A stretch of 64,000 bases of DNA from Minisyncoccota bacterium (GTDB taxonomy: Bacteria; Patescibacteriota; Minisyncoccia; Phycocordibacterales; PALSA-1337). The translations under genes and the position numbers were made by a program. Numbering within the stretch: the first letter of the stretch is position 1; each line of letters begins with the position of its first letter. The stretch lies in NCBI GenBank assembly GCA_041665325.1, contig JBAYJB010000001.1, forward strand, positions 162,817 to 226,816, read 5' to 3'. This document shows, one piece after another, positions 34,433-38,353 of the stretch. The notes below the pieces were generated by a model. The model did not search any database. It was not told the origin of the DNA and was given only the letters and a program-made list of their open reading frames with translations.

Positions 34433-37400
34433 CTATGTGGCCACAATATTCACCAATTTGTCCGGGACCACGATCGTGCGCCGTATTTCCTTTGCTTCTA
34501 GCCATTTTTTGGCTTCTGGTAGATCTCTGGCCATCTTTTCAAGATCCTCCTTCCCTGTTCCTGTTGGTGCCATGAATGAGCCGCGGACCTTGCCGTTGAC
34601 CTGGAGCATGATCTTGACTTCGCTCTCGATCAGCATGTCAGGATCACACTTAGGCCATTCGGAAGTGTGAATAGATTTTTTATTTCCCATGCTCGACCAC
34701 AACTCCTCGGCGACGTGCGGCGCGAACGGGGCGAGGAGCTTGAGATATGATTCGAGGGCTGTTCTCGATACCGATTCGCTCTTCTCCAGCTCATTCAGAC
34801 AGATCATAAGCGTGCTGATCGCCGTGTTGAACTTCAATCCTTGGATATCATCGGTCACTTTCTTGATAGTCCTGTGAATTATAGTTGGAACGGCTGTATC
34901 CCCGGTAGTCCTATCGGCGAACTTCCAAACGCGCTCGATGAAGCGGCGCGATCCGACCATGCTGGCGGTGCTCCAGGCGATCTGCTGGTCGAACGGGCCC
35001 ATGAACATCTCGTAGAGGCGCAGGGTGTCGGCTCCGTAAGTCGCGATGATGTCGTCCGGGTTGATGACATTGCCGAAGCGCTTGGACATCTTCCTGCCAT
35101 CCTCGCCCATGATCAGACCGACGCTCTGGAGCTTGGTGAACGGCTCTATATAGGAGACGGCCCCGATGTCGTAGAGGAACTTATGCCAGAAGCGGGCATA
35201 GATGAGGTGGCGCGTGGCGTGCTCTGCCCCGCCAACATAGAGATCGACCGGCGACCAATGCTTCTCTTTCGCCGGGTCGACAAGCTGCTTCTTGTTATTC
35301 GGATCTTCGTAGCGCAGATAGTACCAGCTCGAACCGGCCCACTGCGGCATGGTGTTGGTTTCGCGCTTCCCTTTGCCGCCGCATTGAGGACACTTGACGT
35401 TGACCCACTTGTCGATAGCGGCAAGCGGTGATTCCCCTGTCCCGGTAGGCTCATAAGACTTCACTTTGGGCAGTTTGACCGGCAGATCCTTCTCGGGCAC
35501 GGCTACTACGCCGCACTTGTCGCAATGAATGACCGGTATCGGCTCGCCCCAATAGCGTTGGCGGGAGAAGACCCAGTCGCGAAGCTTGTAGCGAGTGACC
35601 CAGCGACCACTAACGAACGTGGTTATATCCCTCATGACTGATGAGGACTCCTTATTATCGAACATATCGGAATTCATCAATCGCCCATCACCAACATAAG
35701 CGCTGGCCTTAAATCTAATCTTGTCGCTTGTCTTGTCGTATCCTAATTCGATCGCCAAACCAATGGCCTGCTGGATGAATCTAAGCCAGTGATGATTGCC
35801 ATCTCCATTCCACGATCTTATGCCATCGTCGAGCTCGTCTGCAGATAGCCAGACTAGGTCAAACTTCTCGTGAGCCTCATGCTTCACATCTTTAGAGTCG
35901 GATTTTTTAAGGATCACGAGCAGACATGTGGCATCAGCTACTCGGTTGAGATGCTTCAGTGAATGGTAATAATGGGCTCGAGCTTTTTCTACTACTTCCA
36001 CTTTCTCAAAATCGTACAAACCGCTTTCCTCTGTTATCTCCCTCAAAATCCCCTCTTGAAGATCTTCACCCTTGTTCAACCCACCGGCAAAAAGCCCGAC
36101 CTTCCCATCCTCGCGCTTGTAAGCAGCATATTTCTGCTTCACCGGATCAAATACGACCCCACATCCTCCACCTCTTTCTTCTTCGTTCTCACGCTTGGTT
36201 CCAAACTCAGGAACAATCACTTGCCTTATTTGCAATCCGTACTTCTTAGCAAAAGCTAAGTCGCGCTCGTCATGTGCCGGCACTGCCATGACCGCACCGG
36301 TGCCGTAGTCGGCAAGGACATAGTCGGCGATCCAGACCGGCACCTCTTCTTTGTTTGCCGGATTGACGGCCCAGACACCTTTGAGTTCGACACCGGTCTT
36401 CTCCTTGGACAGATCGGTGCGCTCGATCTGAGTAGCGATCAGGGCTTGCGCCATGTACTGCTCGACTTCCTGCTTATTCTCGAGCCGCGGTAATAGTTCC
36501 TTGACCCAAGGATGTTCCGGAGCCAAGACCATGTAAGTCACCCCGAACAACGTGTCCGGGCGGGTGGTGAAAACTTTGACATTTGGAGTCACGCTCTCGA
36601 GCACAGCCGGTTCTTGCAGAGCACAGAAATGTTCTTTGGCCGCAGAGGTCTCGGTGAGAGCGCCGGAAAGCTCCTTGGTAAGCTGTTTGAGCCATGGTAT
36701 GCGCTTTTCCTCCTTGATGTCCGAAAGCACGGCGACACGCCCTTGGGCGAGCTTATTGATCAATTTGTAATCGAAATCCCAATCAAAATTTTTGTGGTAG
36801 ACGCGCGGCTTAGAGTTCTTATTGAAACCTGGTGGCATAGCCGCAGCTACTAGCACCAACCCGGATATCGGACGGTTGAGCTTCATGAGCGCCTTCATAG
36901 CAACGATCGCTCCGAGACTGTGTCCGATTACGACGGTATATTCGTCTAACTTACAATTCTTGAGCACATATTCGACTTGTTCGGACTCCTTTGGATCAGT
37001 CGAGTTTGGCAATTCAGGAGTCTCAACTTCATGGCCGCGCTGTTGTAGTTCGGCCTTGAGCCAGGGGATGAAATTATTCTTGGCACTGCCGGTATAGCCA
37101 TGGAGGATGACGAACCGCGACTTGTGGTTTTTGAGGACTAGGCGGAAATCGATCTCTGCTCCCTCGCTCCTGCCGATCCAATTACGCTGGGCTTCCTTGA
37201 TCGATTCAGGCCAGTTGAGAAGAGGTTTTATTTCTTGTTTTTTGGCTCCGGTAAAGAGATCCCACAGATAAGTCATATCCTCGTAATTCGTAAAATCCCT
37301 GACTTCGTCGCGAGAAAGCCAGACATGTTCATGGAGAGATTTCTCCTCCTCATTTGTCTCTTCCCGCTCGTCGTTCAGAAGCTCGACATAAACGCCGGTA

Positions 37401-38353
37401 AAATGTGCGAATCGATTATGCTTCTTCACTTTCTGAAAAAACTTTGAGTCGACTCTACCGAATTCTCTGATGAATCTTACGTTCTTATAGCCGGTCTCCT
37501 CTCGAATCTCCCTCGCGGCCGTATCGGCCAACGATTCTCCTTCTTCCCTACCACCGATCACGAAACCTTGCCAGTGCGTTGCCTTCCAACGAGCGCAAAG
37601 ATATTTATCTTCATGCCAATGTTTGATGATCACCACTGCCGCATCGCGTTCAGAGATCGGATCATCGGGCCGAAAAGCATCTTCACCAATGGCCCTAGTC
37701 ACGAGCGGTATGCCGCCACTCGCATCCAGATCCGTGAGCAACCGATCCGCATAGTCCGTGATCTTCAGGACCCACTGGCGCATCGGCTTCTTCTCGACCG
37801 GCGTGCCGCAACGCTCACAACGTCCGTCCTCGACGTCTTCGTTGGCCAGACCGGTCTTGCATGAAGGACACCAATTGATCGGCTCATACGATTCGTAGGC
37901 CAGGCCTTTCTTGAATAACTGCAAGAATATCCATTGCGTCCACTTGTAGAACTTGGGATCAGTCGTATTGACCTCGCGCGACCAGTCGTAGTCCAGACCG
38001 ATCAACTCGAGCTGCTGTTTGAATCTTTTGACGTTCTTGGCTACCGACACCATCGGATTGGTCTTCATCTTGATGGCGTAGTTCTCCGCCGGCAGGCCGA
38101 AGGCATCGAAACCCATGGGGTGGAGGATGTCGAGGCCTTGCATGCGCTTCATGCGCGAGACGATGTCAGTGGCGATATAGCCCTTGGGATGGCCAACGTG
38201 TAGGCCATCACCGGAAGGATACGGGAACATATCGAGGACATAATATTTGCCCTGACCGGTCTTCTCGCTGGCGCGGTAGAGCTTGGAAGAGGTCCACTTC
38301 TTCTGCCATTTCTTCTCGATCTTGGCGGGGTCGTAGACGGGGCGCTTTTTCAT
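34433..38353 (-). CDS. leuS: Leucyl-tRNA synthetase carrying three inserted hydrolase modules (Nudix, alpha/beta-hydrolase, Nudix)
   Basis: LeuRS core: PYPSGDGLHVGHPKGY (HIGH), NWIGRSEGAEIDF, VFTTRPDTLFGVTYMVLAPEHP (CP1 start), ADYGTGAVMAVPAHDERD, RQRYWGEPIP, KMSKRFGN (KMSKS). Inserted modules: GGREEGESLADTAAREIREETGY and GGLNKGEDLQEGILREITEESGL (Nudix boxes), and VVIGHSLGAIVAM (serine hydrolase nucleophile elbow). Total 1306 aa, against about 820-860 aa for canonical bacterial LeuRS. Confidence 0.9.
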   Translation of the reverse strand: MKKRPVYDPAKIEKKWQKKWTSSKLYRASEKTGQGKYYVLDMFPYPSGDGLHVGHPKGYIATDIVSRMKRMQGLDILHPMGFDAFGLPAENYAIKMKTNPMVSVAKNVKRFKQQLELIGLDYDWSREVNTTDPKFYKWTQWIFLQLFKKGLAYESYEPINWCPSCKTGLANEDVEDGRCERCGTPVEKKPMRQWVLKITDYADRLLTDLDASGGIPLVTRAIGEDAFRPDDPISERDAAVVIIKHWHEDKYLCARWKATHWQGFVIGGREEGESLADTAAREIREETGYKNVRFIREFGRVDSKFFQKVKKHNRFAHFTGVYVELLNDEREETNEEEKSLHEHVWLSRDEVRDFTNYEDMTYLWDLFTGAKKQEIKPLLNWPESIKEAQRNWIGRSEGAEIDFRLVLKNHKSRFVILHGYTGSAKNNFIPWLKAELQQRGHEVETPELPNSTDPKESEQVEYVLKNCKLDEYTVVIGHSLGAIVAMKALMKLNRPISGLVLVAAAMPPGFNKNSKPRVYHKNFDWDFDYKLINKLAQGRVAVLSDIKEEKRIPWLKQLTKELSGALTETSAAKEHFCALQEPAVLESVTPNVKVFTTRPDTLFGVTYMVLAPEHPWVKELLPRLENKQEVEQYMAQALIATQIERTDLSKEKTGVELKGVWAVNPANKEEVPVWIADYVLADYGTGAVMAVPAHDERDLAFAKKYGLQIRQVIVPEFGTKRENEEERGGGCGVVFDPVKQKYAAYKREDGKVGLFAGGLNKGEDLQEGILREITEESGLYDFEKVEVVEKARAHYYHSLKHLNRVADATCLLVILKKSDSKDVKHEAHEKFDLVWLSADELDDGIRSWNGDGNHHWLRFIQQAIGLAIELGYDKTSDKIRFKASAYVGDGRLMNSDMFDNKESSSVMRDITTFVSGRWVTRYKLRDWVFSRQRYWGEPIPVIHCDKCGVVAVPEKDLPVKLPKVKSYEPTGTGESPLAAIDKWVNVKCPQCGGKGKRETNTMPQWAGSSWYYLRYEDPNNKKQLVDPAKEKHWSPVDLYVGGAEHATRHLIYARFWHKFLYDIGAVSYIEPFTKLQSVGLIMGEDGRKMSKRFGNVINPDDIIATYGADTLRLYEMFMGPFDQQIAWSTASMVGSRRFIERVWKFADRTTGDTAVPTIIHRTIKKVTDDIQGLKFNTAISTLMICLNELEKSESVSRTALESYLKLLAPFAPHVAEELWSSMGNKKSIHTSEWPKCDPDMLIESEVKIMLQVNGKVRGSFMAPTGTGKEDLEKMARDLPEAKKWLEAKEIRRTIVVPDKLVNIVAT

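Follow-up and report, generated by a model that had tools for sequence, protein, structure and literature searches.

Three hydrolase domains nested in surface loops of a Patescibacteria leucyl-tRNA synthetase

The leuS gene described here raises two questions: what are the extra segments that interrupt its product, and what might they do in a leucyl-tRNA synthetase (LeuRS)? The window, the 64,000-nucleotide stretch of DNA that was analysed, comes from a Patescibacteria (CPR) genome. The ORF at 34433-38353 on the minus strand has an ATG start and 1306 codons plus a stop, and encodes a bacterial-type LeuRS of 1306 aa. The NCBIfam model leuS_bact (TIGR00396) scored 969 bits with a cut-off of 548, and Thermus thermophilus (Tt) LeuRS (1h3n) matched with an E value of 1e-202. 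It is the only leuS copy in the window. A YchF gene (38377-39474) lies on one side and a sigma70_r4/HARE-HTH gene (33340-34377) on the other, and the same synteny is found at loci L001, L005, L008, L016 and L017. The ORF is the genuine leuS of this genome.

Alignment with 1h3n placed the extra segments at residues 211-378, 406-589 and 714-884, close to the borders 212-380, 406-585 and 717-865 given in a preliminary description of this DNA. The rest is LeuRS. Residues 1-210 (37724-38353; all features given here are on the minus strand) form the N-terminal part of the catalytic core and align to Tt LeuRS 4-208, with HVGH at residues 52-55 (38189-38200) and the ZN-1 CxxC...CxxC region. Residues 379-405 (37139-37219), LNWPESIKEAQRNWIGRSEGAEIDF, align to Tt 210-236 and lead into CP1. 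The core of the CP1 editing domain comprises residues 590-713 (36215-36586), which align to Tt 241-362, match Pfam tRNA-synt_1_2 (E 5.8e-57), and carry the T-rich motif TTRPDT at residues 596-601 and GTGAVMAVPAHDERD at residues 684-698. Residues 885-1306 (34433-35701) align to Tt 376-579 and 638-876 and contain the second half of the Rossmann fold with RQRYWGEP, ZN-2-like CxxC pairs, an anticodon-binding domain matched by Pfam Anticodon_1, and the C-terminal domain. The landmarks HIGH (as HVGH), NWIGRS, TTRPDT, GTGAVMAVPAHDERD and RQRYWGEP occur in the order first described, while the motif reported as KMSKS is KMSKR (residues 1088-1092). By their sequence, the synthetic and editing motifs are intact.

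The protein shares with canonical bacterial LeuRS (T. thermophilus 1H3N/2BYT, E. coli 4AQ7/4ARC) the class Ia core, ZN-1, CP1 with its T-rich and Asp motifs, and the anticodon-binding and C-terminal domains. It differs in having KMSKR for KMSKS, in lacking the leucine-specific domain in the 1h3n alignment, and in carrying three extra catalytic domains at Tt positions 208/210, 236/241 and 362/376. The nearest ortholog, P0082 (810 aa), has the same synteny, is 80-85% identical (85% over residues 1-210) and contains none of the three inserts, which shows that LeuRS can function without the modules. The window protein exceeds it by 496 aa.

Two of the inserts are Nudix domains; Pfam NUDIX matched two stretches of the whole protein (E 5.8e-23). 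Insert A (37220-37723, residues 211-378) immediately precedes the strand leading into CP1. Its Nudix box, GGREEGESLADTAAREIREETGY, occupies residues 267-289 (37487-37555) and is followed by the motif FF..K..NR at residues 303-314. Insert C (35702-36214, residues 714-884; Pfam NUDIX E 1.1e-9) interrupts a late CP1 loop between Tt residues 362 and 376. It matches the same Nudix subfamily profile as insert A, with the box GGLNKGEDLQEGILREITEESGL at residues 757-779 (36017-36085), YY..K..NR at residues 793-804 and a helical C-terminal extension. A six-frame translation of the whole window contains only two strict Nudix boxes, those of A and C, and both are exact. Among related LeuRS proteins the metal-binding glutamates are intact in 186/190 Nudix modules, and the additional subfamily motif [FY][FY]x3KxxNR is conserved in ∼95%.

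The closest solved relatives of these modules include Ap4A/Ap6A hydrolases, the Rv2985 diadenosine polyphosphatase, decapping enzymes and RppH, one structure of which has Ap4A bound. The best NCBIfam matches were RppH models, far below their cut-offs (37 versus 118). Compared with stand-alone ApnA hydrolases, RppH and decapping enzymes (Aquifex 3i7u, T. thermophilus Ndx1 1vc8, M. tuberculosis Rv2985 9cxx, E. coli RppH and AvrM14 8dp8; the uncharacterised E. faecalis 2azw was also compared), the LeuRS modules are just 13-22% identical. They also differ in a KHWSEDKY-like N-terminal region, in the [FY][FY]x3KxxNR signature, and in residing mostly inside LeuRS.

Insert B (36587-37138, residues 406-589) is a serine hydrolase of the YdeN/RBBP9 type (Pfam PF06821) located in the first CP1 β-hairpin, about 8 residues upstream of TTRPDT. 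The catalytic triad consists of Ser479 (36917-36919), Asp545 (36719-36721) and His575 (36629-36631), with an HG oxyanion motif at residues 418-419 and a GHSLG elbow at residues 477-481. Pfam covers only the N-terminal half of the insert, whereas the profile match to B. subtilis YdeN (1uxo) is full-length with the catalytic His aligned. Profile searches against the PDB gave E values of 2.1e-31 for YdeN and 2.5e-22 for human RBBP9 (7oex). Triad and elbow are common to the family, identity to the solved members is 21-23%, and Foldseek returned a TM score of about 0.8. The triad is invariant in 61/61 modules at this site. RBBP9, the only close relative that is characterised, is a serine aminopeptidase that needs a free α-amine and cleaves α-aminoacyl-X bonds (PMC8866121). 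Its substrate-binding residues Tyr99 and Glu108 are not evidently conserved in insert B, and inspection of the alignment gave no obvious counterpart for Glu108, the α-amine ligand.

Pfam (tRNA-synt_1, LeuRS editing domain, Anticodon_1, NUDIX, and Ser_hydrolase PF06821/Abhydrolase_1/Abhydrolase_6), the 1h3n alignment, AF2 (pLDDT 94.7 for insert B and 95.2 for the other module modelled) and Foldseek all agree with the architecture originally claimed, a Nudix domain, an α/β serine hydrolase and a second Nudix domain interrupting LeuRS. Surface loops around the editing domain thus hold three autonomous, nested hydrolase domains, each of which retains its predicted catalytic residues. The AT richness noted for the inserts is real and stems from the third position of codons, where the GC content (GC3) is 0.49 in inserts A and C and 0.60 in insert B, against 0.71 in the LeuRS core and a mean of 0.68 (sd 0.09) for genes of the window.

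The architecture had been presented as if unique, but it is widespread. More than 100 Patescibacteria LeuRS clusters (90% identity) bear Nudix, serine hydrolase or HAD modules, the A+B+C pattern recurs in eight other independent assemblies, and 69 leuS-embedded copies were found in species-representative genomes. The modules are found at fixed hot spots, at least five in number and restricted to variable surface loops and hairpin tips, with in-frame junctions and conserved flanks. Serine hydrolases are used at B or D and Nudix domains at any site from A to E, with up to five or six modules per protein. LeuRS motifs are kept in 108-120 of the 120 family members, and this conservation suggests that the host function is retained. 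Among these 120 proteins there are 27 occupancy patterns, and even sister sequences differ. Module and core identity are uncorrelated (Spearman -0.16 to 0.21), and leuS genes ∼88% identical in DNA hold cassettes that are unrelated and set off by sharp breakpoints. At L017 the variant leuS has an integrase gene immediately upstream, and some lineages have no modules. By sequence comparison, the turnover of cassettes (gain, loss and replacement) is independent of the host gene. We consider the architecture and this evolutionary pattern, taken jointly, nearly certain. The proposed recent insertion of foreign modules holds in part: the design is old and is found in proteins just 50-60% identical, whereas cassette exchange, gain and loss in close relatives, the insert-free nearest ortholog and the atypical insert GC3 fit the proposal.

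Accessory catalytic domains occur in other aminoacyl-tRNA synthetases (aaRSs), such as INS in ProRS and the editing domains of ThrRS and AlaRS. An IleRS with a GNAT domain (NCBIfam NF040702) likewise combines an aaRS and an additional enzyme domain in one polypeptide. The LeuRS modules differ from these in being Nudix, YdeN-type and, in relatives, HAD domains, nested rather than terminal, and swapped like cassettes between close relatives. Segmentally variable genes (Zheng, Roberts & Kasif 2004, PMC387263) are described as highly conserved genes in which separate hypervariable stretches vary from one close relative to the next; compared with that description, the variable segments here are whole enzyme domains replaced at fixed sites in an essential aaRS. 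No description of Nudix, YdeN-type or HAD hydrolase domains in any aaRS was found in the literature searched.

The Nudix subfamily also occurs outside LeuRS. Stand-alone members 46-47% identical to insert A lie 2-4 nt upstream of an insert-free leuS at the syntenic locus, and a class II ProRS, the only other host found, contains an inserted member. LeuRS accounts for 103/147 of the top cluster representatives. These three observations argue for a functional link to aminoacylation. Most stand-alone copies lie away from leuS, in miscellaneous contexts among miscellaneous small enzymes.

We felt that tethered clean-up or proofreading is the most likely role. The modules would be active enzymes that work next to LeuRS, dealing with by-products or mistakes of aminoacylation. 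The Nudix modules would probably cleave adenylate-derived dinucleoside polyphosphates (Ap4A-type) and related NDP-X or capped species, and the serine hydrolase α-aminoacyl-X bonds, for example in mis-made aminoacyl esters or adenylates. Tethering would mean that they are expressed together with LeuRS and stay close to its synthetic and editing sites. Catalytic competence is suggested by the conserved glutamates, subfamily motif and triad and by the high pLDDT values, and the chemistry by the ApnA hydrolase, RppH and decapping relatives and the RBBP9 aminopeptidase. The preliminary description had proposed Ap4A or alarmone clearance or additional proofreading, and these relatives, together with the subfamily members next to leuS and within ProRS, lend that proposal some indirect support. 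Against this role are the low RppH scores, the missing Glu108 counterpart, the insert-free P0082 and the many stand-alone copies that do not adjoin leuS; nor would a simple housekeeping role lead one to expect rapid cassette replacement or two or three paralogous Nudix domains in one protein. LeuRS is also not known as a major source of Ap4A. Overall, we give this explanation about an even chance, a judgement that reflects function, and hold the specific assignment to clean-up or proofreading of side products only tentatively.

Four other explanations were weighed. That the long ORF is an assembly chimera or mis-join, or contains an intein-like or mobile element that is missing from the mature protein, is hardly credible: compositional dips over the inserts are its sole support, while Pfam finds no Hint/intein, endonuclease or transposase domain, the catalytic motifs are under purifying selection, and the recurrence of the architecture in over 100 clusters from independent assemblies (contigs up to 858 kb), together with the junctions and flanks, speaks against an artefact as well; the explanation is effectively refuted. 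It is very improbable that the modules are degenerate spacers or interaction surfaces. The partial Pfam hit on insert B and the A2 sub-type of site-A modules (E7→Q, R15 lost; full box in 4/23 copies) would fit degeneration, but the variant box retains all three metal-binding glutamates, both window boxes are canonical, the triad is invariant family-wide and the YdeN match is full-length. Somewhat unlikely is a hitch-hiking origin, in which house-cleaning hydrolases of a general kind, mechanistically unconnected with LeuRS, lodge in CP1 loops that tolerate them. The gene, essential and constitutively expressed, would simply act as a scaffold for their expression and stability in small, regulator-poor genomes, and turnover would come from neutral gain, loss and recombination. 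Nudix, HAD and α/β hydrolases are classic house-cleaning superfamilies, insertions are confined to loops and hairpin tips, any module type can be found at more than one site, P0082 has no inserts, and stand-alone copies keep company with miscellaneous enzymes. The strong bias towards aaRS hosts, the tight coupling of a stand-alone copy upstream of leuS, and the use of one dedicated Nudix subfamily with its own motif rather than random Nudix genes argue otherwise.

We also regard as unlikely, though of interest, that the cassettes protect or repair LeuRS or tRNALeu against toxins, phages or competitors. Nudix modules, joined in relatives by HAD modules, would free the 3'-CCA end of the tRNA of blocking pyrophosphate or phosphate groups. 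The serine hydrolase would take off aminoacyl groups that are blocked or aberrant, or inactivate inhibitors that mimic aminoacyl adenylates, and swapping would mirror an arms race. The modules are grouped around CP1, the domain that handles the 3' end of the tRNA, and pyrophosphatase, phosphatase and esterase/amidase chemistries all fit known types of 3'-end block. There is also precedent in toxSAS toxins, which pyrophosphorylate tRNA CCA ends, and the dedicated hydrolases that reverse this (bioRxiv 10.1101/2021.04.30.441581; PMC11559606), but the former does not mention Nudix enzymes acting on modified tRNA ends. The uncoupled module and core identities, sharp replacements, varied occupancy, atypical GC3 and the L017 integrase gene all suit such a conflict; weak selection with recombination could equally give the turnover, modules are missing from some lineages, and the neighbours of leuS in the window include no evident toxin or defence gene. 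We know of no Nudix enzyme that acts on modified tRNA ends. Tethered clean-up or proofreading is therefore kept as the preferred reading of what is apparently a large, undescribed LeuRS family with swappable hydrolase cassettes; conflict-driven protection of tRNA and aaRS, if true, would be an exciting alternative to it.

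The window leuS gene (34433-38353, minus strand) encodes a protein of 1306 aa, as had been read from the sequence in the preliminary description. The NCBIfam model for bacterial LeuRS (TIGR00396, leuS_bact) matched this protein in four stretches with 969.2 bits against a cut-off of 548.4. The domain scan that the preliminary description proposed returned what it had predicted. In Pfam, the class Ia core, the editing domain of LeuRS and the anticodon-binding domain were identified together with two NUDIX stretches (E 5.8e-23) and a Ser_hydrolase/Abhydrolase match that includes PF06821. 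The CP1 editing domain (PF13603, E 5.8e-57) contains TTRPDT at residues 596-601 and GTGAVMAVPAHDERD, with the conserved editing-site Asp, at 684-698. The class I signature consists of HVGH (52-55) and KMSKR (1088-1092), and both variants are also found in P0082, an insert-free LeuRS ortholog of 810 aa. The motifs named earlier were essentially right, except that the supposed KMSKS is actually KMSKR.

The window LeuRS was aligned with T. thermophilus (Tt) LeuRS (1h3n) using phmmer, which generated five collinear blocks and left three segments unaligned. Insert A (residues 211-378) lies at Tt 208/210. Insert B (406-589) lies at Tt 236/241, the first CP1 hairpin, just before TTRPDT. Insert C (714-884) lies at Tt 362/376, in a loop late in CP1. 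This alignment and the exact Nudix boxes placed the inserts essentially where they had been drawn from motif order. The leucine-specific domain is missing from the window LeuRS in the same alignment. Judged by its sequence, the gene encodes a functional-looking LeuRS that nests three hydrolase domains with intact catalytic residues.

Inserts A and C contain exact Nudix boxes (GX5EX7REUXEEXGU) at residues 267-289 and 757-779, the sole strict Nudix boxes in a six-frame translation of the window. Each insert scanned alone matched Pfam NUDIX (PF00293), with E-values of 2.7e-14 for A and 1.1e-9 for C. Insert A, modeled from an alignment of 35 modules, adopts an alpha/beta/alpha Nudix fold (pLDDT 95.2), and a profile search of PDB sequences agreed with this identity. 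The three metal-binding glutamates are intact in 186/190 modules. They are also kept in a sub-type with a consistent E7->Q/R15-loss box, made up of A2 of the site A modules and two stand-alone proteins. Beyond the box the modules have a common signature, [FY][FY] at +16/+17, K at +21 (183/190) and N-R at +24/+25. Because all share this motif, the Nudix modules were considered one dedicated subfamily, even though window inserts A and C are 24% identical. An aromatic residue about 16-18 positions past the Nudix box has been described as a signature of ApnA hydrolases. Inserts A and C have FF and YY at +16/+17, and both positions are aromatic in ∼95% of the 190 modules, a feature of weak diagnostic value. 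The inserts were not classed as RppH since the best NCBIfam RppH score (PRK00714) was 37 bits, far under the cut-off of 118, and the likeness is at the fold level only.

Insert B scanned alone matched Ser_hydrolase (PF06821, 38-40.6 bits against a gathering cut-off of 22) along with general alpha/beta-hydrolase models. A profile search of the PDB matched B. subtilis YdeN (2.1e-31) and human RBBP9 (2.5e-22) over the full length, and the catalytic His of insert B aligned with that of YdeN. Ser479, Asp545, His575 and the HG oxyanion motif do not vary among the site B modules (61/61), and the GxSxG elbow is present. The AF2 model (pLDDT 94.7) is a compact, lidless alpha/beta-hydrolase fold of ∼190 aa. 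Foldseek placed YdeN and RBBP9 clearly first, with 1uxo, 7oex, 2qs9 and 9fcr as top matches (TM 0.78-0.82). RBBP9, the only biochemically characterized member of the family, is a serine aminopeptidase that needs a free alpha-amine (PMC8866121). Its alpha-amine recognition residues, Glu108 and Tyr99, have no obvious equivalents in insert B, where the alignment is gapped.

The best 120 homologs of the window LeuRS were examined for insertions of at least 40 aa, which were mapped by alignment to P0082, the single member without inserts. All are Patescibacteria-type LeuRS of 810-1722 aa, and most contain NUDIX, alone or together with Ser_hydrolase and HAD_2. The insertions fall at recurrent hot spots (P0082 numbering). 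Site A (∼215-223) holds one Nudix module or two in tandem, site B (∼249-257) the serine hydrolase, and site C (∼375-394) Nudix. Site D (∼451) holds a serine hydrolase in homolog P0067 and a 130-aa module in homolog P0113, site E (∼495) holds HAD, and site F (∼650) holds ∼50 aa of low complexity. An exhaustive search of representatives found Nudix modules at sites B, D and E as well. The P0113 module (residues ∼763-915) sits after the LeuRS zinc knuckle PIPVxHC, matches nothing in Pfam and is a further cassette type. The 120 proteins display 27 occupancy patterns, and the A+B+C pattern of the window occurs in eight others, so the architecture is not unique as had been implied. Synthetic and editing motifs are kept in 108-120/120 hosts. 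A single-sequence scan of species-representative genomes for the Nudix subfamily generated 80 loci, labeled almost entirely as Patescibacteria lineages, with 69 copies embedded in leuS and 15 stand-alone. The window LeuRS belongs to a widespread, combinatorial, cassette-exchanging family. An assembly chimera was ruled out, as many independent assemblies have this architecture.

Cassette exchange was examined among close relatives. The gene order around P0082 is that of the window: G6PD, YchF, leuS, a sigma70_r4 protein, DUF8128 and YceG. P0082 is insert-free and is 70-85% identical to the window LeuRS across all core segments, the CP1 stretch between inserts among them. This uniform identity rules out a swap of the whole CP1 region as the source of the insert-free protein. 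Sister sequences in the NJ tree of the core are often unlike in occupancy. Over all pairs, module identity was uncorrelated with core identity (Spearman 0.21 for B, -0.10 for C, 0.13 for A, and -0.03 and -0.16 for sub-types A1 and A2). When homologs P0049 and P0022, an extreme pair, were compared directly, the flanks were identical at 28-30 residues in each stretch of 30, and identity was ∼20-30% exactly between FGLxIKQVI and NSGKFDG. Their loci, L016 and L017, are 87-89% identical in DNA upstream, over the N-terminal, CP1 and C-terminal cores, and over three downstream genes. Similarity detectable by blastn is gone over site A (516 vs 1011 nt) and site C (503 vs 542 nt). Divergence in situ cannot yield these patterns; cassettes are replaced at fixed sites between close relatives. 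In the NJ tree of modules the sites interleave; that alignment is short (172 columns), and cassette exchange rests on the pairwise tests and not on this tree. Upstream of leuS, L017 has a phage-type integrase gene (941-1858) where L016, 88-89% identical, has YchF and a TrmB-family gene. A mobile element may adjoin the variant leuS allele of L017.

Base composition was consistent with cassette replacement. GC3 in the window is 0.49, 0.60 and 0.49 for inserts A, B and C, compared with 0.71 for the LeuRS core and a gene mean of 0.68. Just 4.6% of 160-codon windows outside leuS have GC3 of 0.50 or less. GC3 dips likewise in the Nudix insert of homolog P0077 (0.22 vs 0.38). The dip sits at third codon positions, which eliminates amino acid composition as the cause of the AT-richness. 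The inserts had been described as recent foreign insertions. That description is half right: the individual cassettes turn over, but the design itself is old. Inteins and mobile elements were ruled out as the identity of the inserts, as no Hint, endonuclease or transposase domain was found with Pfam at E ≤ 0.1. At the insert junctions stand G/K, L/V and V/A rather than the Cys/Ser...HisAsn of inteins, and no DNA repeats or microhomology were seen there by eye.

Members of the Nudix subfamily also exist outside LeuRS, and stand-alone proteins are 45-47% identical to insert A. The genes of two of these, P0121 and P0122, lie 2-4 nt upstream of a leuS without inserts, at loci syntenic with the window. 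The exhaustive search identified 157 cluster representatives matching the subfamily profile at E ≤ 1e-30. The top 147 comprise 103 LeuRS, 30 stand-alone proteins and a remainder of mostly LeuRS fragments. The sole non-LeuRS host found was a class II prolyl-tRNA synthetase (P0260; locus L015, 2906-4837), with the Nudix domain inserted between the anticodon-binding and ProRS-C_1 domains. Other stand-alone copies have no conserved neighborhood, with GrpB, RibD_C, DUF6151, nitroreductase and methyltransferase genes as neighbors. Loci L003 (3312-4929) and L004 contain a stand-alone 214-aa relative of insert B and, two genes away, a 135-aa Nudix gene that is likewise stand-alone, an arrangement which hints that the two module types are neighbors also when free. 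Four Saccharimonadia-labeled loci (L081, L086, L088 and L094, about 6400-7700) have one or two stand-alone Nudix genes of the same subfamily ∼1.3 kb downstream of a Nudix-bearing leuS.

Several other features of the window were observed. It is rich in aaRS genes, with LeuRS, ValRS, AlaRS and a 411-aa class II aaRS (58476-59711), and 30/31 long non-overlapping ORFs (at least 250 aa) are on the minus strand. The ValRS (51353-53869, minus strand; 838 aa) has ∼75-100 extra residues (about 455-559) between positions equivalent to T. thermophilus ValRS 418 and 448; GC3 dips locally to 0.43 and the segment has no Pfam match at E ≤ 1. Its C-terminal part seems missing or in another frame, since the ORF stops at the equivalent of Tt residue 706. 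The AlaRS ORF (23840-25624, minus strand) is just 594 aa (tRNA-synt_2c and tRNA_SAD), and the C-terminal C-Ala region is apparently absent. A 474-aa ORF (42449-43873, minus strand) looks like a recently acquired foreign gene; its GC3 is 0.27 against the gene mean of 0.68 (sd 0.09), and it has no Pfam match at E ≤ 1. The Pfam scan was also empty for minus-strand ORFs of 630 aa (25653-27545), 454 aa (21263-22627) and 423 aa (32014-33285), the last of which occupies the position of the DUF8128 proteins at syntenic loci.

The bias toward aaRS hosts, the stand-alone gene coupled to leuS, the fold neighbors and the chemistry of RBBP9 are all indirect evidence, and together they suggest that the modules may work alongside LeuRS on by-products or mistakes of aminoacylation. 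The predicted substrates of the Nudix modules are ApnA/NDP-X species, and the serine hydrolase is predicted to target aminoacyl-X bonds. A simple housekeeping role is argued against by the cassettes being dispensable and rapidly turned over. Another possibility is that unrelated enzymes hitch-hike on an essential gene.

A role in conflict or repair seemed to us a bit of a long shot. In its favor are the turnover of the cassettes, the multiplicity of modules, their location around the domain in charge of the tRNA 3' end, and the precedent of tRNA CCA pyrophosphorylation by toxSAS, which dedicated hydrolases undo (bioRxiv 10.1101/2021.04.30.441581; PMC11559606). In the fullest version, which we consider rather improbable, Patescibacterial LeuRS would be a docking platform for hot-swappable Nudix, YdeN-type and HAD cassettes that protect or repair the tRNA 3' end and the aminoacylation machinery in an arms race. 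The cassettes would strip pyrophosphate, phosphate or acyl blocks put on by toxins or phages, or would alternatively destroy inhibitors that mimic aminoacyl-adenylates. Inter-strain recombination at the fixed loop sites would then diversify specificity.

Family members have been public since the first CPR (Patescibacteria) genomes, labeled just 'leucine--tRNA ligase' or 'alpha/beta fold hydrolase'. Full-text literature searches found no account of LeuRS or other CPR aaRSs bearing Nudix, hydrolase or HAD insertions, or of cassette dynamics, and we know of no description of this architecture or its dynamics. Few known enzymes are as conserved as the aaRSs, and bacterial LeuRS serves as a paradigm for structure and as a drug target. 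A lineage-wide LeuRS family with as many as five or six additional hydrolase domains around the editing domain (in proteins of up to 1722 aa) was unexpected, as was the swapping of these domains between strains whose genes are otherwise ∼88% identical in DNA. The window LeuRS is an aaRS with accessory domains, and its evolutionary behavior is unusual and possibly important. The hot spots would be natural examples of permissive insertion sites for LeuRS engineering. The 'Rosetta-stone' links, namely the stand-alone gene abutting leuS and the ProRS insertion, place an orphan Nudix subfamily, as well as the YdeN/RBBP9 family, which is poorly understood, in a concrete functional context that can be tested. 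If LeuRS is indeed a docking platform, this would be a new kind of defense or counter-defense within an essential translation enzyme. Should the modules target by-products of aminoacylation or damaged tRNA ends, they would make up a new level of quality control in translation, or of defense, in the ultra-small CPR bacteria.
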